Source of the DNA: Candidatus Omnitrophota bacterium
GTDB lineage: Bacteria; Omnitrophota; Omnitrophia; Omnitrophales; JACQLI01
Reading direction: 5' to 3'
DNA length: 59,102 nucleotides
Assembly: GCA_016179745.1 (NCBI GenBank)
Contig: JACPCP010000021.1
Coordinates: 1 to 59,102, forward strand
Shown here: piece by piece, positions 30,621 through 39,087 of the stretch
Layout: every line of letters starts with the position of its first letter
Position numbering within the stretch: the stretch's first letter is position 1
Notes under the pieces: generated by a model
What the model saw: only the letters and a program-made list of their open reading frames with translations
Databases searched by the model: none
What the model was told of the DNA's origin: nothing
Translations under genes and position numbers: made by a program

Positions 30621-31781
30621 ATGACAAACGAAGCCTCAAAATTCAAGTGGGTCATCACGATCGGCTTTTTTCTCCTGCTCTGGGGAATTGCCGCCGTCCC
30701 CTTCCTGATTTACCCGCCCTCACCGTCGTTGACTTATGAAATCCAAAATTTTTCGGGAGCGGCCCATCATTACGGGACCGCCGAGAAGAGTTGGGTGCCG
30801 CCCCAACGTTCGGAAATCCTCAAAGTCGGCGACCGCCTGCGGACGGGGCCCCGGGGAGAAACGGATTTCAGGATCCCGGGCCAAATGCGGCTTCGTTTGA
30901 AGGAAAATTCTGAGATTGAACTTCGAGCGCCGAGATTTTTTGAACGGTCCCGTTCCCCCCGCCTCCTCCTCCGTCGCGGAGTTTTGCTGGGGGCCACGGA
31001 AAATCAGGCGCTTCCCGTATCGGCCCACATCGTGACGCCCGCCTTCGTGGCCAAAATCAGGGAAGGTATCTTCCAGATCGAAACGGATCCGAAATCGAAA
31101 GTCTCCGTGGCCCGGGTCTTGAGAGGCTCCCTGGAGATCTTCTCTTTCCAAAGCCGTCAATCCGTCACCGTGCGAAGCCTTGAAAGGACGGAAGTCTCGG
31201 GGAAAAAAGCGCCGCAAACCCCTGTGCGGGTGGACCGCCAGGAATGGAACAAGATGAAAGAGGCTTATGAACTGATCTTCAAGGATACGACCCTGGAAAA
31301 GCGGCAGTTCGACCTCTCCAAACAGGCAGGCAGCTTTTTCCAATACGTCATCGACCACGGCACGTTTTACACCCCCAGTTTGGGCTATGCCGAACGTGAA
31401 TTTTTCAAAGGGGAAGGGGCCGGCGAAACCCAAATGGAAGTGGGCTATGATGTCTTTCCCGTGGGTTCTCTGGTGGGGGTTTACTTCAAGACCCGGGACC
31501 TGGATCTTTCCACGTTCAAGGGTTTGGAATTCGAAATCCGGGGCGATCCCGAAGAAGGAGTGCCGGACAGTTTCAAAATCGAGTTGAAATCTGGGTCCGG
31601 AGTGGTCCGGGCATTCAAAACAAGGGGTGTGAAGGAGGCCTGGCAGACCTTTCAATTCCCCTGGCGGTTCACCCGTTCGAAGGAATTGTCGGAAATGACC
31701 TTTGTCTTTTCAAACGAAAAGGCGGGAAATCAAAAGAAGGGACTGGTCGTCTTCCGAAGAATCAATCTTCTCACGAAATGA
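30621..31781 (+). CDS. Membrane-anchored FecR-domain protein with a C-terminal carbohydrate-binding-like beta domain
   Basis: N-terminal TM, FecR pattern (LKVGDRLRTG..G...LRLKENSE...TPAFVA.IR...V.VL.GS), and a C-terminal DLSTFKGLEFEIRG...FKIELK...WQTFQFP pattern. Confidence 0.7.
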   Translation: MTNEASKFKWVITIGFFLLLWGIAAVPFLIYPPSPSLTYEIQNFSGAAHHYGTAEKSWVPPQRSEILKVGDRLRTGPRGETDFRIPGQMRLRLKENSEIELRAPRFFERSRSPRLLLRRGVLLGATENQALPVSAHIVTPAFVAKIREGIFQIETDPKSKVSVARVLRGSLEIFSFQSRQSVTVRSLERTEVSGKKAPQTPVRVDRQEWNKMKEAYELIFKDTTLEKRQFDLSKQAGSFFQYVIDHGTFYTPSLGYAEREFFKGEGAGETQMEVGYDVFPVGSLVGVYFKTRDLDLSTFKGLEFEIRGDPEEGVPDSFKIELKSGSGVVRAFKTRGVKEAWQTFQFPWRFTRSKELSEMTFVFSNEKAGNQKKGLVVFRRINLLTK

Positions 31782-32505
31782 TCTGCTTTTTAAAAACAGC
31801 GGTTGGAAATCGCCGCCCGGGGCAGTCGGTCTTTCCCCGCTTTCCCGGCACCTCATTGTGGCGGAGGACGTGGGAAGCCGGGATCTTGTATTTCATCTGA
31901 AGCTGGCGGACCAGCCAGATTAGGGAATTCAGCTGATTCAGCGACACCTCTTCATTGTCGAAATTTCCAACGAGACAAATTCCGATTCCCTTTTGATTCA
32001 TGTCTGAGGCGTTGCAGTGGGCGCCGTCCATCTGGTGGTTCCACCGGTGACCGGTTTCAATCTGCCCGTCCCGGGTGCCCCCGGTGCCGTTATCGACCAC
32101 AAAGTGGTAACCCAATCCGTTCCAGAATCCCCGCTTGCGGTGGCCCTTGTCAAAGGACTCGGCATTGCCCACTTCCGTTGCGCTGTGGTGAACGATAATG
32201 TATTTCCACCGTTGGGCGTCCGGAAGGAAAGGGAGAGTTTTAAGCTCGTGCGGGACGCCCGGGATCCAAATAGGGGTCCCCACCTTGAGGTCCGTGGGGT
32301 CTTTGATCCTGTTGGCCGCCAGAATCGCACGAGCGCTGACGCCGTAAGTCTCGGAAAGACGCCAAACCGTCTCCCCTTTCACGAGCATATGGGTGATCCC
32401 TCCCCCTCCCACCAGCGCTGAAGGACGAGTGACGGGGTGCCGGGCCGGGTGCGTCGCACAGCCGGCGAGATAAAACAAAAATAGCGGGAGCAGGATCTTT
32501 TTCAT
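31771..32505 (-). CDS. LysM + N-acetylmuramoyl-L-alanine amidase (Amidase_2) lipoprotein
   Basis: Lipobox LAGC, LysM (HMLVKGETVWRLS..YGVS...I..AN), IIVHHSAT, GYHFV, GAHC, IGICLVGNF, H..V...TDCPG. Confidence 0.9.
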   Translation of the reverse strand: MKKILLPLFLFYLAGCATHPARHPVTRPSALVGGGGITHMLVKGETVWRLSETYGVSARAILAANRIKDPTDLKVGTPIWIPGVPHELKTLPFLPDAQRWKYIIVHHSATEVGNAESFDKGHRKRGFWNGLGYHFVVDNGTGGTRDGQIETGHRWNHQMDGAHCNASDMNQKGIGICLVGNFDNEEVSLNQLNSLIWLVRQLQMKYKIPASHVLRHNEVPGKRGKTDCPGRRFPTAVFKKQIIS

Positions 32506-33623
32506 TTTGAGATCGAAGATAATTCCGGATATCGTTCGACGGCGAACCGGGTGATTCTAAGCACAAGCTCCTCGTAACTCCAGCCTTTTTTCCGTGCCAA
32601 AATCACCAGATCGCCCGAACCGGGATGGAGGCCCGGAAGGGGGTTCGCCTCCAGAAAATAGAAGGCCCCTCCGGCCGTGACCCGAAAATCCATTCGGGCA
32701 AAATCCCTCAAACCCATCGCCTGAAATAGACGGATCGCCGATTCTTCAATTCTTTTTCGGAGGGTGAAGTCCAGCCGGGGCGGAACATGGTAATCGACGA
32801 GGGCCTTCCAGTCCCGTTTGACCTCGAGGGAATAACAGAAATCTTTTTCGGAGGGATCCCGGAAGGTGATCTCCATCAGCCCGAGGATTTCCGGATCCTT
32901 GTTGCCCAAAATGCCCACGGTCACCTCCCGCCCGGGAATATATTCCTCCGCCAAAACAGATTCCCCGGGGTGCGAACCAAAGAGCCGCCCCGCTTCTCTC
33001 TCAAGCGAAGGACGGTCCTGGACCCGGGAGGAGCGGCGAATCCCGATGCTGGACCCCTGCCAGAGGGGCTTCACAAAAAGGGGAAACCGGTCCGGGATTT
33101 TCGAAACATCCTCTTTCGTCTCCAAGACCCAAAATTCGGGCGTGGGAATTCCGAGAGAGATTGCCATCCGCTTGGCGAGAGATTTATCAAGCGTCAGGCC
33201 CAGGCCGACGGGATCCGATCCGGAATAAGGCACCCCGAGCATTTCCAAAAGGGCGGGGAGGTGGGATTCCCGGCTCCGGCCAGAAAAACCTTCAGCGATG
33301 TTAAAGACAAAATCAATCTGGTTCTCTCTGATCCGATCAATGACCCCCAGATCGCCTCCGAGAAGAAACACAGAGTCGGCCTCAAAGGCCAAGGCCTTTT
33401 GAAGAGCTTCGATCGTCTCTGGGAGGTCAAACTCCTCGGCTTCTTCTCCGGTGGAATCGGCACTGACACGGGTTGCCAAGTCGCTCTTTAGATTGTAAGT
33501 GATCCCGATTCGCACGGATTCAGGAGAATTTTGCTGGCCCGTTAGACCAATGCCGTTGGCCGTGATAGCGCCCGTTTCCCCGAGGCCTCCCGTAATTGGC
33601 CCGCCGGCGGGCCAATCGTTCAC
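32502..33623 (-). CDS. D-Ala-D-Ala-ligase-like ATP-grasp enzyme (KamA-associated type)
   Basis: RIGITYNLK, EEFD, FNIAEG, TLDK, PLFVKP..QGSS.GI, EEYIPGRE, RMDFR, LEANPLPGL. True start may be GTG 33515. Confidence 0.88.
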   Translation of the reverse strand: MNDWPAGGPITGGLGETGAITANGIGLTGQQNSPESVRIGITYNLKSDLATRVSADSTGEEAEEFDLPETIEALQKALAFEADSVFLLGGDLGVIDRIRENQIDFVFNIAEGFSGRSRESHLPALLEMLGVPYSGSDPVGLGLTLDKSLAKRMAISLGIPTPEFWVLETKEDVSKIPDRFPLFVKPLWQGSSIGIRRSSRVQDRPSLEREAGRLFGSHPGESVLAEEYIPGREVTVGILGNKDPEILGLMEITFRDPSEKDFCYSLEVKRDWKALVDYHVPPRLDFTLRKRIEESAIRLFQAMGLRDFARMDFRVTAGGAFYFLEANPLPGLHPGSGDLVILARKKGWSYEELVLRITRFAVERYPELSSISK

Positions 33624-34827
33624 TCAGGTGAAAGGAACGGTGCCGAATGTCCGTTTCCGCCGTTCGGCCTTCACGGACAGGATCTTTGTATTCAAAAATG
33701 AGGCCCTCATAATTTCTCAAAATGACGCCGTCTTCCGTGACGGAAACGAGGTAGTTGGGTCCGACCGGAATCTTGCCTCCCCCGCCCGGGGTGTCAATCA
33801 CAAATTGCGGGACGGCAAAGCCGGTGGTGTGCCCCCGAAGACCCTCGATGATCTCGACGCCCTTCCAAAGAGAGGTCCGAAGATGCTCCGCCCCCTTCAC
33901 GGGATCGCATTGGTAGAGGTAGTAGGGCCGGACCCCGATTTTGAGGAGGCCGTGACAAAGCTCTTTCATCACAGACACGCTGTCATTCACTCCCCTCAGA
34001 AGCACGCTTTGATTATTCATCGGAATCCCGGCCCGCTGGAGCCGGTCACAGGCCCGGGCGGCTTCCCGGGTGATTTCCCGGGGGTGATTGAAATGAGTGT
34101 TGACCCAAAGCGGCCGGTATTTTGAAAGCATTTCCACCAGCCCCGTGTCGATTCTCTGGGGCAGGACCACGGGGAATCGGGTGCCGATCCGAAGAATTTC
34201 CAAATGGGGAAGGGTCCTCAGCTTCGCCAGAATATTTTCAAGCCTGGCGGTGGAGAGGACGAGGGGGTCTCCCCCGGAAATTAAAACATCACGAACCTTG
34301 GGCGTCCGGGCGAGATAGTCCACCATCCGGTCAATTTCCTGATCGGAGCGCATCCAGATCCCCTCTTCCCACTCCCGCTTGCGGGTGCAGTGACGGCAGT
34401 TCATCGGACAAAGGTTCGTGACCTGCATCAGGACCCGGTCGGGGTAGCGATGCACCAGGCCCGGGACCCCCATGTCCTCTTCTTCCTCCAGGGGGTCCGG
34501 CTCACCCCAATTTCCCTTTTCAATTTCTTCCCGGGCAGGAAAGGATTGAAGCCGGATCGGATCGGCAGAATTCTCAAAATCGATGAGGCAAAGATAGTAA
34601 GGCGGGATTATCACCGGATATTTTTGAATCACACGGGCCAGCACAGCCCGTTCCGACTCGGGGAGTTTCCCGTAGGCGAGGACGGCATCGAGGGACGTCA
34701 CGGCCCGGCGAAGCTGCCAGCGCCAGTCGTTCCACTCGGCGTCCGTGGCCTCCCCAAAAAGCTGGCGCCGCCTCGCCTCAACTCCCCACTCGGTTGGAAG
34801 CGTTGAGACGGGCGGCGCTTGTCGCAT
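33520..34827 (-). CDS. kamA: KamA-family radical SAM, predicted lysine 2,3-aminomutase
   Basis: WNDWRWQL, EPDPLEE, LVHRYPDRV, CPMNCRHCTRKR, ISGGDPL, NQSVLL.GVND, YLYQCD, IDTPGGGGK. Start reassigned to ATG 34827. Confidence 0.92.
   Translation of the reverse strand: MRQAPPVSTLPTEWGVEARRRQLFGEATDAEWNDWRWQLRRAVTSLDAVLAYGKLPESERAVLARVIQKYPVIIPPYYLCLIDFENSADPIRLQSFPAREEIEKGNWGEPDPLEEEEDMGVPGLVHRYPDRVLMQVTNLCPMNCRHCTRKREWEEGIWMRSDQEIDRMVDYLARTPKVRDVLISGGDPLVLSTARLENILAKLRTLPHLEILRIGTRFPVVLPQRIDTGLVEMLSKYRPLWVNTHFNHPREITREAARACDRLQRAGIPMNNQSVLLRGVNDSVSVMKELCHGLLKIGVRPYYLYQCDPVKGAEHLRTSLWKGVEIIEGLRGHTTGFAVPQFVIDTPGGGGKIPVGPNYLVSVTEDGVILRNYEGLIFEYKDPVREGRTAETDIRHRSFHLSERLARRRANYGRPRGNGRYHGQRHWSNGPAKFS
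33595..33616. repeat. Second copy of the palindrome ATTGGCCCGCCGGCGGGCCAAT
   Basis: 22-bp perfect palindrome identical to the core of 16658-16681, in the kamA 3' end / ddl-like 5' overlap. Confidence 0.9.
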
Positions 34828-34930
34828 TTCTACTGCAGGTTGACTCACCCTATAGAGTCCTTTCCACCGTATTATCGACACCCGGGGTAAATCTTTGACG
34901 GCCGACGGCGATCGGAAATAACCACGGGCC

Positions 34931-36205
34931 TCAGACCACCCGCAAGCGGGAAACCCAGAGATAGGGAAACAGGGCGGCCCCCATTTCACCGTCTTTGAGA
35001 AGAATTTGTTCCCGGCTGGCGCCGGCCACGGAATTCAAGATCGAAAAAAGGGAATCGTGATAGCGAAGGTGGACGGCCCGCCCAACGATCCGCCCCTTTT
35101 CGAGATAAAGGCTGCCGGCCGTAGCGAGGCCCGTGACCTCCATCGCAGGTTCCCGAACGAGCGTGTGATACCAAATCTTGTTGATGAAAATCCCACGTTC
35201 AATTTTTTCAAAAAGCTCCTGCAAGGAAAACGTTCCTTCCTCGACCACGAGATTTTGAGGATAAAACGGGTGTTCGAGAAGTCCCCGGGTGCTGTGCCCT
35301 TCTCCGAGGAGCCCCTTCAAGACACCTCCCTCGACCAGGTCGACCCTTCGTTTGGAATGGCCTTCGCTGTCGAAAGGGATTCCAAACTGGCGGGGATGCC
35401 CCAAGTCTTCCCGCATCGTAAACTCTTTGGAAAAAACCTGCTTTCCGAGAAGTCCCGTGAACACACTTTTTCCGTCTTGAGTGAGACGGGCGTCGAAATG
35501 CCGCCTTAAAGGTTCGATTAATTCCAGGAAAGCCCGGGGAGAGAAAATGCATTCATACTCACCCGGGGGGACCGGAATCTCCTGACGAGAGGCCGCCTCC
35601 GCCACCCGAAGCGACTCTTGGACCACGTGCGGGACATCGAGCCTGCAGGGGTCCGGATGGTAAAAACTGAAGTATCCCTTCCCCCCTCCCTTAATGGCAG
35701 TCACTCCGAAACGGACCGCCGTCGTTGGATGAAAAAGTTCGAGCCCCTCAGGATTTGAGAGATAAAAAAACCGCTCGTAGGCTGAGTAATATCCGTTGGC
35801 GCTCGCCTGCGCCCGTCGAAGGATCCCCACGGCTTCCTGGACGGCTTGAGCGGCCCGCTCGGGGGCTTTCTCCAAGGGAAAAGGGAAATGCTCCCTTTTC
35901 TTCGGAGTGTCCGCCTTGGGAGGGGGCGAAAACGGCTCAGGGTCCGGGGCCACGGTCCGGAGCCGGCGGAGTGTTTCCTGAATGCCTAATTCGGAAACAT
36001 CGTTGGATTCGGCAAAGACCGGTCCTGAGGAAGTCAGCAGGCGGAGCGTGTAGGAAAAAATTTCCTGGAAACCGTTTTGGTGAACGCCATTATTCGTAAA
36101 GCGGGCCAGAATCCCCTTCTTTGCCCGGATAAAAATTTGAAGGGGCAGGCCTTCGGCGTGATCTAAAATCCGGCGGCTCGCTTTTCGAATTCGATCGAGC
36201 ATCAT
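34931..36205 (-). CDS. pmbA: PmbA/TldE-family protein
   Basis: RFTNNGVHQN, PGEYECIFSP.A, PFDSEG, LVEGGVL, no HExxH. ATGA overlap with tldD. Start reassigned to 36205. Confidence 0.85.
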   Translation of the reverse strand: MMLDRIRKASRRILDHAEGLPLQIFIRAKKGILARFTNNGVHQNGFQEIFSYTLRLLTSSGPVFAESNDVSELGIQETLRRLRTVAPDPEPFSPPPKADTPKKREHFPFPLEKAPERAAQAVQEAVGILRRAQASANGYYSAYERFFYLSNPEGLELFHPTTAVRFGVTAIKGGGKGYFSFYHPDPCRLDVPHVVQESLRVAEAASRQEIPVPPGEYECIFSPRAFLELIEPLRRHFDARLTQDGKSVFTGLLGKQVFSKEFTMREDLGHPRQFGIPFDSEGHSKRRVDLVEGGVLKGLLGEGHSTRGLLEHPFYPQNLVVEEGTFSLQELFEKIERGIFINKIWYHTLVREPAMEVTGLATAGSLYLEKGRIVGRAVHLRYHDSLFSILNSVAGASREQILLKDGEMGAALFPYLWVSRLRVV

Positions 36206-37671
36206 TCTCTCCCGAACCGGACGTTTCGGAAGCGGGCCGGGCTCAAGCCATGTCCCGTGAAGGCCTCCTGATAGGGGCCGCCCTTGCCGCAATCGGGGAA
36301 GCCCCAGAACCGCCACTCCTCTTTTCCGGCGACCCGGTCGCACGACTTCCAAAAATCGAGGGTATTGCCGTGGTAGACCGGAAAACGGACCAGGCCCTTG
36401 ATCTTTCCATCATGAATGCGGTATCCCGCTTCTCCCCCGATCTGGAAATCAAGCCGCATCTCATCGATGGACCAGCTCAATTCATTGTCGAGCAAATATC
36501 CCTCCCGGATGTCCTGAATCAGATCCGGGAGGGAGCCACGCCCCGGCAGGAGGCTCGTATTGGTCATCCGAATCAAGGGGTAATGGGACCAATCCTCCGC
36601 CACCATGTTGGCTGTGGATTCCGGCTGATTTAAAAAGCTGGCCGTCTCCCGGCTCGTGAGATAGCCGGTAAAAATGCCCCGCTTCACAATCTCAATTCTT
36701 TTTGCGCTCACCCCTTCGTCATCGTAGGCAAAACTTCCGGTGCCGGGTCCGAGGTTTGGTCCGGCATCGCTCACAAGGGTGACGGCCGGGGAGGCCACCG
36801 GCGCCCCTCCCAAAAGGCCGGGATTGAGAAACGTCCTGCCGCCGAAATTGTCCTCGTAACCATAAACCCGGTCAGACTCCGAGGCGTGGCCAAAGGTTTC
36901 GTGAATTTGAAGCGCCAGAATCGATCCCTTGAGAATCAAATCGAAATTTCCCGTGGGGGCCTCCGGGCTCTTGCGAAGTTCCTTTAACTCCTCGGCCAGC
37001 CGTCCGGTTTCTTCTATAAATTTCAAGTTTTCGATGGCCTCATAACCCTGGCCGAGAAAAAGCCCGCTCGGGCCCGGCCAGCTTCGGCGAATCTTTTCAG
37101 ACCCCCCTCCCGAGAAGGCTCGGCTTTCCACCCAGGTTTCGCCGTAAATCCAGCCGCCGGTCCGGTAAAGCACCTGCTCGATCCAGCTTCCTCCCTTGGA
37201 AACGAAAATAATCCGCTTCCGGGTGAAATCGAGCAGGCTTGCGGCAGAGTCCATGCCCTCCTGCCAGCAAAGCCTGTTTTCTGCTTCGATCACGGGGCCA
37301 ATTTTCTCCTTGAGGCCCAACTTCCACGGGTCCTTGGCGACCGGCATGACCCAGCGGCTCTTGACGGGCTTGGCGGACGCCAATTTCACTTCTGTGTGGC
37401 GGATCTTCGAAAAACGCTGCGCTGACTCGTAGGCAATTTTCAGGTGCTTGAGAACGGACTTTTCGGAAAGATCGGAAGTCGCCGAAAACCCGAAGGCGCC
37501 CCCGTTCAGGACCCGGAATCCGATCCCCCGTGAAAAAGTCTCTTTCGCCTCCTCAAGGATCCCGTTTTTGGACCGGAGGCGCATCCGCTCGAGTTCCACA
37601 TAGCGGAAATCCGCATCCTCACAGGAGAGGCGGCCCAGTGAATTCTGCAGCTTTAAAAGGAGTTTTTCCAT
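36202..37671 (-). CDS. tldD: TldD metalloprotease
   Basis: GIGFRVL..GAFGF, HETFGHASESD (HExxxH), YDDEGV, PLIRMTNT, CGKG.P.Q. Confidence 0.93.
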   Translation of the reverse strand: MEKLLLKLQNSLGRLSCEDADFRYVELERMRLRSKNGILEEAKETFSRGIGFRVLNGGAFGFSATSDLSEKSVLKHLKIAYESAQRFSKIRHTEVKLASAKPVKSRWVMPVAKDPWKLGLKEKIGPVIEAENRLCWQEGMDSAASLLDFTRKRIIFVSKGGSWIEQVLYRTGGWIYGETWVESRAFSGGGSEKIRRSWPGPSGLFLGQGYEAIENLKFIEETGRLAEELKELRKSPEAPTGNFDLILKGSILALQIHETFGHASESDRVYGYEDNFGGRTFLNPGLLGGAPVASPAVTLVSDAGPNLGPGTGSFAYDDEGVSAKRIEIVKRGIFTGYLTSRETASFLNQPESTANMVAEDWSHYPLIRMTNTSLLPGRGSLPDLIQDIREGYLLDNELSWSIDEMRLDFQIGGEAGYRIHDGKIKGLVRFPVYHGNTLDFWKSCDRVAGKEEWRFWGFPDCGKGGPYQEAFTGHGLSPARFRNVRFGRE

Positions 37672-37698
37672 TGAGTTTGCGGGGTCGCTTGAGTAAAC

Positions 37699-39087
37699 TT
37701 GCCCGACATGACCCCTTCTATTTACGACCTTTTCCGCCAGTTACCCAAATCCACACTGGACCGGCTCAGCCAAAAACTCGGCCGGCTCGCTCCCTCCTCG
37801 GGCCTGACTTATCAGGACGAGCGGGGAAAGACCACGAGCATCACGGTCACCCTCCGCCCTCGATTGGTCCCGGCCGGGATTCGAAATACGCTTTGGAAGA
37901 CTCTTCGGGTCCTGGACGGCGCCTTTCAGAAAATAGCGCCTCTTTATTTTCAAAACCCAACGCTTGCCCCCATTTTTCCGTTTTCACCCCGGGAGATTGA
38001 CTGGCTTTCGCTCCTCCGGAAAAAAGGCTACGTGAAGGGGCCGCTCGTCTCACGTTGGGACGCCAACACCACGTTTGGGCCCCAAGAGTGGAAGGAAGGG
38101 TTCTCCTTCTTTGAGGTCAACGGCGTTGGGGTCGGGGGCCTTTGGTATGGCCCCGCCACGGAAGATGTCATTCTAAAAACCGTGGTCCCGGAACTTCAAA
38201 AAATTGACCGGCGCTTCCGGCCCCGGCCCAACCACGATATGCGACGGCTTCTTCTGGGTGTCCTCCTTTCCCAACGTAGAAAACTGGGACGGACCCGGGG
38301 CGTCATCGCCCTCGCCATGGAAAAGGCCAGCGGGTCCAACTATGTCGAATTTGAACGCCTGGCCCAGCTCTACCGGAAGCTGGGTCATACAGCGATCGTC
38401 ACGGAACCGACGGATTTTCGCCTTCGGGGTGGTGATCTCTTCGCCCGTGGAAAAAAGATCGACGTCATTTACCGGGACACGACCCTTTCCGAACTTTGTC
38501 TGATGGAGGAAAAGGGGCACAGCCTTGCCGCCCTCGAGCTGGCGTTCTGCCGTGGACAGGTGGTGTCGTCTCTGGAGGGAGAGTTCGACCACAAGAGCGC
38601 TTTTGAGGTTTTCACAAGCCCTGAATTCGCCCCGGCCTTTACGCCGGCGGAACGCAAACTTTTCAAGCAGCACATCCTCTGGACTCGTCTCCTCCGGGAA
38701 AGAAAAACCATCAATCCCCGGGGAAGTCCCGTCGACTTGATTCCTTTTGTCCTCAAGAACCAATCCGGCCTTGTCCTCAAGCCCAACCGGCTTTACGGCG
38801 GGCAAGGGGTTGCGTTCGGTATTGAGTTAACCCGACGGTCCTGGGAGAAAAAGATCGAAACCGCCCTGCGGGAATCCGGTGAGTGGGTCATTCAACAGCT
38901 CGGCAAACTCAGAAAAAAGACATTTTTCCGCCCCGACGGTCTCCGGGCGAGACAAAAAGACCTTTATGTGGTTTCCGGTTTTTTCGCCTCCCCCGAGGGG
39001 CTCGGCATCGTGGGGCGAATGTCCGAACGAAAAGTGGTCAACGTGGCCCGGCGTGGCGGGCTGACGCCGATTTTGGTGACCTCCTAA
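37699..39087 (+). CDS. Circularly permuted ATP-grasp (glutathionylspermidine-synthase-like) amidoligase
   Basis: FFEVNG..VGG, IDVIYRD, DHKS, LVLKPNRLYGGQGV.FG, WVIQQ, GR.S...VVNVARRGG. Start may be ATG 37708. Confidence 0.78.
   Translation: MPDMTPSIYDLFRQLPKSTLDRLSQKLGRLAPSSGLTYQDERGKTTSITVTLRPRLVPAGIRNTLWKTLRVLDGAFQKIAPLYFQNPTLAPIFPFSPREIDWLSLLRKKGYVKGPLVSRWDANTTFGPQEWKEGFSFFEVNGVGVGGLWYGPATEDVILKTVVPELQKIDRRFRPRPNHDMRRLLLGVLLSQRRKLGRTRGVIALAMEKASGSNYVEFERLAQLYRKLGHTAIVTEPTDFRLRGGDLFARGKKIDVIYRDTTLSELCLMEEKGHSLAALELAFCRGQVVSSLEGEFDHKSAFEVFTSPEFAPAFTPAERKLFKQHILWTRLLRERKTINPRGSPVDLIPFVLKNQSGLVLKPNRLYGGQGVAFGIELTRRSWEKKIETALRESGEWVIQQLGKLRKKTFFRPDGLRARQKDLYVVSGFFASPEGLGIVGRMSERKVVNVARRGGLTPILVTS

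Follow-up and report, generated by a model that had tools for sequence, protein, structure and literature searches.

A lysine 2,3-aminomutase and a Ddl-like ATP-grasp ligase as the putative core of a beta-lysine ligation pathway in Omnitrophota

Where does beta-lysine go when the gene for its synthesis stands directly beside the gene of an ATP-grasp ligase? The question is raised by a contig of 59,102 nucleotides (nt) from a Candidatus Omnitrophota bacterium (GenBank assembly GCA_016179745.1, contig JACPCP010000021.1), analysed at its full length and called the window here, in which kamA, coding for a lysine 2,3-aminomutase, is followed by the gene of a Ddl-like ligase, AG1, and by that of a LysM-amidase. 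Few fates of beta-lysine are known: N-epsilon-acetyl-beta-lysine, modification of elongation factor P (EF-P), lysine fermentation and some antibiotics. A preliminary description of this DNA had suggested that the ligase joins beta-lysine into a dipeptide or a peptidoglycan stem and that the amidase remodels or recognizes the modified wall. The reading that we favour, with a probability of roughly 0.6, is that kamA and AG1 form the two-gene core of a widespread and undescribed beta-lysine ligase pathway leading to a small peptide or amide of beta-lysine in the cytoplasm, to which this lineage adds TldD/PmbA and a ligase with a glutathione-synthetase fold. The features concerned are the following (lengths in amino acids, aa):

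33520 to 34827, minus strand: KamA-family lysine 2,3-aminomutase, 435 aa (PDB 2a5h, E=3.7e-137)
32502 to 33515, minus strand: AG1, Ddl-like ATP-grasp amide ligase, 337 aa, GTG start (Dala_Dala_lig_C, E=1.8e-31)
31771 to 32505, minus strand: LysM and Amidase_2 lipoprotein (Amidase_2, E=3.9e-21; LysM, E=1.4e-10)
36202 to 37671, minus strand: TldD-like metallopeptidase (PmbA_TldD_3rd, E=9.2e-38; HETFGH motif)
34931 to 36205, minus strand: PmbA/TldE-like partner of TldD (PmbA_TldD_3rd, E=1.7e-28)
37699 to 39087, plus strand: circularly permuted ATP-grasp ligase, 462 aa, called the divergent ligase below (AlphaFold model and Foldseek)
34871 to 34878, minus strand: TCGATAAT element in the pmbA-kamA spacer, possible -10 box (conserved in 16 of 16 orthologous loci)

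The three genes on which the preliminary description was built are indeed tightly coupled: all lie on the minus strand, 4 nt separate the kamA stop from the AG1 start, and an ATGA overlap joins the AG1 stop to the ATG of the amidase gene. The database entry for AG1 also has 337 aa, matching the call of a GTG start. The run begins upstream of kamA, with the tldD and pmbA genes on the same strand (by the list of open reading frames, the pmbA ATG sits on the tldD stop in another ATGA overlap), and it comprises five genes: tldD, pmbA, kamA, AG1 and the LysM/Amidase_2 gene. On the other side of tldD the divergent ligase gene starts in the opposite direction, and the gap between the two starts is only 27 nt (37672 to 37698), so that both promoters must sit in the adjoining coding sequences. 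An Rfam scan of the window found no RNA family, and a generic scan for promoters and terminators returned nothing above chance level.

The first step is the firmest. Homology strongly supports that KamA converts L-lysine to beta-lysine: it matches the Clostridium subterminale lysine 2,3-aminomutase (PDB 2a5h) at E=3.7e-137, and its YLYQCD and FVIDTPGGGGK segments align with YIYQCD and FVVDAPGGGGK of that enzyme, bearing out the catalytic motifs (QCD and ID.PGGGGK) reported before, whose residues we take to be Asp293, Asp330 and the pyridoxal-phosphate lysine, Lys337. The radical-SAM motif CxxxCxxC reads CPMNCRHC (Radical_SAM, E=2.4e-14). KamA scores 339.5 bits on the family model TIGR00238 (cut-off 199.2) and 505.9 bits on the AblA equivalog TIGR03820, just short of the cut-off of 525.4 and far above what it reaches on the models for the glutamate and arginine enzymes and for EpmB (EpmB: 249.8 bits, cut-off 369.3). 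The inter-subunit zinc site of the clostridial enzyme, presumably made of Cys268 and a C-terminal CxCxxC, is missing: a serine takes the position of Cys268, there is no C-terminal CxCxxC, and the same cysteines are missing in all 88 cassette-linked KamA proteins examined. Asp293 is kept in 88 of the 88 linked KamAs having the motif, as are Asp330 and the pyridoxal-phosphate lysine in the 42 of 42 inspected from the Omnitrophota set.

Does the genome encode any known consumer of beta-lysine? The assembly spans 1.5 Mb and is 79% complete, which sets the scope of all genome-wide negatives here. Within it no second KamA was found; the EpmA model returned only a 504-aa open frame below its cut-off, which we read as a lysyl-tRNA synthetase, and the AblB model had no match. 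The absence of known consumers, claimed before for the window, hence extends to the genome for EpmA and AblB; the lysine 5,6-aminomutase model gave no match either, being equally silent on the control genomes.

AG1 would be the missing consumer. Sequence searches of known structures place Ddl enzymes closest to it, and alignment with Escherichia coli DdlB and with the canonical Ddl of the same genome shows that AG1 retains equivalents of DdlB Glu15, Lys144, Lys215, Arg255, Asp257, Glu270 and Asn272, which serve ATP, Mg and the acyl-phosphate (in the AG family R274, D276 and N291 are invariant, and E289 nearly so). Every Ddl and Van model scores it far below cut-off, at best 146 bits for Ddl against a cut-off of 243, and the residues that we take to line the D-Ala site, His63, Tyr216 and Ser281/Leu282 in DdlB numbering, are replaced (NIAEG, K-R-x-W and GDL). 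The AG1 family has invariant motifs of its own, TYNLK, E-x-D, FNIAEG..GRxRES and NPLPGL, and the window ligase groups with AG1 in the family tree. A canonical ddl, which the preliminary description had proposed to look for, lies on another contig in a murB-ddl-ftsQ-ftsA cluster. Taken from sequence, these comparisons support the view that AG1 does something other than joining D-Ala to D-Ala. Its linkage to KamA supports a functional tie between the two, and ligation of beta-lysine is the best reading of the predicted enzyme.

The linkage itself is visible across genomes. A relative of AG1 is present in 42 of 151 Omnitrophota genomes (about 28%), and KamA directly adjoins it in 42 of 42. At one locus (L027, genome G145) the two are fused in one continuous 731-aa frame, KamA running into the ligase start IGITFNLK. 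A scan of species-representative genomes recovered 80 loci from many phyla, with KamA inside the locus in 61; several of the 19 KamA-less loci are on truncated contigs, and the clear exceptions are mostly Myxococcota with two ligases. The pair occurs in Chloroflexota, Planctomycetota, Thermodesulfobacteriota, Bacillota, Acidobacteriota, Bathyarchaeota and others; the same contigs that bear the cassette in two Bathyarchaeota genomes encode ribosomal proteins S13 and S4, which we read as being of archaeal type. Of the three genes first described, KamA and AG1 thus stay together in every AG1-bearing Omnitrophota genome, and the amidase is distributed independently of them. A literature search found no paper linking a 2,3-aminomutase to an ATP-grasp ligase.

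The usual unit in other phyla is larger: KamA is followed by AG1, a second Ddl-like ligase (AG2) and a 158-aa GNAT protein, with occasional extras (a 582-aa histone-deacetylase-family protein with a weak GNAT match, a major facilitator superfamily (MFS) transporter, Peptidase_S66 and Peptidase_S58). Such extras, being amide hydrolases or exporters, favour the pathway proposed here. Searches with AG2 and with the cassette GNAT covered the window genome and eight relatives, of which four reach a completeness of at least 91%. AG2 picked up AG1 and the canonical Ddl and nothing else, and the GNAT had no match; a positive-control genome (G053) yielded both proteins. The locus in the window is a reduced variant of the KamA-AG1-AG2-GNAT cassette.

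Other lineages vary the theme in their own ways. At seven loci of sister lineages (L056, L064, L067, L074, L019, L025 and L027), AG1 or the fusion is followed by a conserved protein of about 330 aa, which has no Pfam match, contains a IIKPASGFGQKGV motif and often has a Peptidase_S66 gene next to it. A profile search with a 336-aa representative gave only non-significant ATP-grasp matches (TTLL7, E=0.11; L-amino-acid ligase, E=0.91), and its structure model, with a mean predicted local distance difference test (pLDDT) of 48, is too poor for use; this protein and Peptidase_S66 may supply the second ligase and the hydrolase in a third way. In Myxococcota and Bacteriovoracaceae (L099, L114 and L122), tandem AG ligases lie beside a Peptidase_S58 gene, with no KamA within 7 kb; Peptidase_S58, the DmpA family, includes beta-aminopeptidases.

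What, then, are the partners of the reduced form? TldD and PmbA both have their Pfam domains, and the TldD translation carries the HExxxH motif as HETFGH; neither protein reaches its NCBIfam equivalog cut-off. In Pfam the divergent ligase has only a sub-threshold match, to CP_ATPgrasp_2. Its AlphaFold model (pLDDT 92.5) nevertheless retrieves human glutathione synthetase in Foldseek at E=1.4e-18 with a template-modelling (TM) score of 0.72, along with yeast and plant glutathione synthetases, the E-64 ligase Cp1B, Mfla_0391 (a putative glutathionylspermidine synthase), GspS and YgiC/YjfC, all significant matches sharing 11-19% identity with it. The divergent ligase is thus predicted to have the eukaryotic-type glutathione-synthetase fold found in small-molecule amide ligases, as judged from the overall fold.

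These genes travel together. TldD orthologues occur in 15 of the 151 genomes, 13 of which have the KamA cassette, and at every orthologous locus PmbA comes after TldD. Orthologues of the divergent ligase occur in 14 genomes, only in those with TldD, and 13 of the 14 also have KamA and AG; in the sole exception (G140) the contig end falls inside tldD. The PmbA-TldD pair present in another genome (G003) is unrelated. Association of the ligase/TldD module with the KamA cassette is significant by Fisher's test (p=1.4e-7, uncorrected for shared ancestry), and tldD, pmbA, kamA, AG1 and the divergent ligase are present or absent together across five families of the window's order (f1, f2, f4, f6 and f9). 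In a further family (f24) the modules lie 26-40 kb apart on one contig in two genomes and on separate contigs in the other two. Among 80 metagenome loci of the divergent-ligase family, TldD/PmbA is the most frequent neighbour (26 loci), and at two loci (L172 and L188) the ligase family stands beside a KamA-AG-AG cassette without TldD. TldD/PmbA and the divergent ligase are hence a separate module that was joined to the beta-lysine cassette more than once. The co-variation of these three genes with the pair lay outside the first reading of the locus. In some distant relatives (as at L135) the order is FolE, ligase, TldD and PmbA, all in one direction.

The pathway that we envisage would start with KamA converting L-lysine to beta-lysine, which AG1 would join to a partner through an amide bond at the expense of ATP. 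AG2 and the small GNAT would complete the unit in most phyla; in the window's order the glutathione-synthetase-fold ligase could perform the second ligation, standing in for AG2, and TldD/PmbA might trim or recycle the product. For everything after KamA, the evidence consists of linkage, one fusion and co-inheritance, from which we infer what AG1 acts on, how the steps are ordered, what TldD/PmbA does and what kind of product results. A bolder form of the proposal, which is possible but tentative, is that the five-gene block makes a glutathione-like beta-lysine peptide, with AG1 acting first, the glutathione-synthetase-fold ligase second and TldD/PmbA as a dedicated hydrolase; together with the KamA-AG1-AG2-GNAT form it would define an unrecognized, wide class of cytoplasmic beta-lysine amides whose second ligase and hydrolase can be swapped between lineages.

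Several observations weigh against the proposed pathway. Many metagenome contigs carry TldD/PmbA and the ligase but have no KamA in the surrounding 10 kb, and the two modules could have been joined here by chance. Co-inheritance comes from two Omnitrophota lineages only, one of which has the genes side by side, so that they may have been lost jointly. The conserved -10-like element upstream of kamA suggests that kamA and AG1 can be transcribed apart from tldD and pmbA. The ATGA overlap in the window couples translation of the amidase to that of AG1, and beta-lysine as the substrate of AG1 is deduced from linkage and one fusion.

That coupling is the starting point of the wall-directed alternative, in which AG1 adds beta-lysine to the stem or side chain of a peptidoglycan precursor and the LysM-amidase remodels the wall; its model would be the ATP-grasp D-aspartate ligase of Enterococcus faecium. 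The Ddl-like nature of AG1, the ATGA overlap and the adjacency of both genes at four loci of family f1 speak for it, as does the Peptidase_S66 gene (an LD-carboxypeptidase family) that follows AG1 in sister lineages. The amidase itself looks intact, with a lipobox (LAGC), His/His/Cys candidate zinc ligands read in the sequence and an apparently complete Amidase_2 domain, but its distribution is not that of a partner: single-copy orthologues are found in 89 of the 151 Omnitrophota genomes with or without KamA, including most KamA-less genomes of the order; KamA-positive genomes outside f1 have it on other contigs; it comes after AG1 in f1-type loci only and is absent from all 80 cross-phylum loci. 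Amidase_2 enzymes cleave the bond between N-acetylmuramic acid and L-Ala, and such an enzyme would not sense a distal beta-lysine. Archaea make no murein, and the cassette is present on Bathyarchaeota contigs. The amidase is an AmiD-like housekeeping wall hydrolase that joined the operon in one family and lies outside the system. On this distribution we reject a peptidoglycan link through the amidase, and with it the earlier idea of wall remodelling; the part of that idea that holds as the best reading, given the non-Ddl scores, the 42 of 42 adjacency and the fusion, is ligation of beta-lysine by the ATP-grasp enzyme, and a peptidoglycan target is quite improbable. That AG1 is a mere second D-Ala-D-Ala ligase, its linkage to kamA being functionally meaningless, is hardly credible: its best sequence-based structural matches are Ddl enzymes, against which stand its sub-cut-off scores on every Ddl and Van model, the replaced D-Ala-site residues, the canonical Ddl in the division and cell-wall cluster, and the universal linkage and fusion with KamA. 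The preliminary description had named exclusive D-Ala-D-Ala synthesis as the outcome that would overturn it, and these data point the other way.

Less improbable, although still unlikely, is a product built on a scaffold peptide, in the manner of a microcin, where the ligases would attach beta-lysine to a peptide serving as carrier or precursor and the product, perhaps an antimetabolite, would be released or matured by TldD/PmbA. TldD/E matures microcin B17, and the inheritance of TldD/PmbA and two ligases as a block, patchy across f1, f2, f4, f6 and f9, would suit such a system. TldD-type proteases are also discussed within a peptide-derived natural-product pathway (PMC12424672). Both ligases, however, resemble small-molecule ligases, and the core cassette is stable across phyla, unlike typical antibiotic clusters. 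A precursor-peptide gene inside the block can be ruled out, the spacers of 27, 103 and 4 nt or overlaps being too short. Beta-lysylation of EF-P or another protein, with an ATP-grasp enzyme replacing EpmA, is very unlikely. KamA is homologous to EpmB (32% identity), no EpmA was found, and in some Omnitrophota families a gene that we read as EF-G-like follows KamA, all of which would be compatible with protein modification; yet KamA scores 249.8 bits on EpmB against 505.9 on AblA, the pair is restricted to about 28% of Omnitrophota genomes, and the GNAT, deacetylase-family and MFS links of the cassette elsewhere suggest a small-molecule product. The EF-P of the window genome (G000, C16:6621-7175) has TPGNKRG as its loop, where the modified lysine usually sits in KPGKG, and its gene efp is on another contig. 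Since no EpmA was found, the conventional EF-P route, also considered in the preliminary description, is itself unlikely, and with the atypical loop and the remote efp we set it aside.

How does the proposed pathway compare with systems already described? The nearest is AblA/AblB, which makes N-epsilon-acetyl-beta-lysine in methanogens and some bacteria: there, too, a long-type aminomutase is encoded beside a beta-lysine consumer, and the cassette of other phyla carries a GNAT. Here, in contrast, AblB is missing, the consumer would be an ATP-grasp ligase, the window's lineage lacks the cassette GNAT, and its KamA falls just under the AblA cut-off and is devoid of the clostridial zinc-site cysteines. 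With Ddl and Van enzymes AG1 shares its fold and its ATP, Mg and acyl-phosphate residues; it differs in score (146 against 243 bits), in the replaced D-Ala-site residues, in its own motifs and in lying outside the division cluster. Glutathione and glutathionylspermidine metabolism involve two sequential ATP-dependent ligations and pair a ligase with a hydrolase. The divergent ligase would have the same circularly permuted ATP-grasp fold as glutathione synthetase and GspS (TM 0.72), although at 11-19% identity and with TldD/PmbA as partners rather than a CHAP amidase. EpmA/EpmB is alike in that a KamA-family aminomutase feeds beta-lysine to a ligase; here there is no EpmA, KamA is not of EpmB type, the ligase has another fold and the EF-P loop is atypical. 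In Enterococcus faecium, an ATP-grasp D-aspartate ligase acting on the peptidoglycan side chain is encoded beside an aspartate racemase, which again sets an amino-acid-modifying enzyme next to an ATP-grasp ligase; in our case the only link to the wall is a family-specific amidase, and the cassette is also archaeal.

An aminomutase paired with an ATP-grasp ligase in many bacterial phyla and some archaea probably means that a common metabolite awaits discovery. What is new here is the reduced Omnitrophota form with its TldD/PmbA and ligase partners. With one aminomutase and one ligase at its core, this form is the smallest version and could be a convenient start for reconstitution, and TldD/PmbA, whose physiological substrates are poorly known, gain a candidate small-molecule context.

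Two further observations concern the neighbourhood of kamA. The TCGATAAT element (34871 to 34878, minus strand; general form [GT]CGATA(A/T)(T/C/A)) is the sole block kept in all 16 orthologous pmbA-kamA spacers, which are otherwise unalignable; in two of them (L015 and L054) about 95 bases are N, so that the comparison is partial there. It is not among the hits of the generic promoter scan. Judged by its conservation and position, the element may serve kamA as the -10 box of an internal promoter or as the site of a regulator. In one genome of the window's family (G146, locus L013, 10791 to 11084), and in that genome alone, the same interval between pmbA and kamA holds a gene for a 98-aa GNAT of Acetyltransf_CG type (Pfam, E=2.4e-19), apparently an acetyltransferase acquired independently in a lineage otherwise missing the cassette GNAT. 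Downstream of KamA, at L026, L030 and some eight other Omnitrophota loci, genes read from sequence as an EF-G-like protein of 650 aa, a YchF-C-terminal-like protein of 233 aa, PurH, FolC, MnmE and FolE follow in conserved order, which is probably housekeeping synteny.

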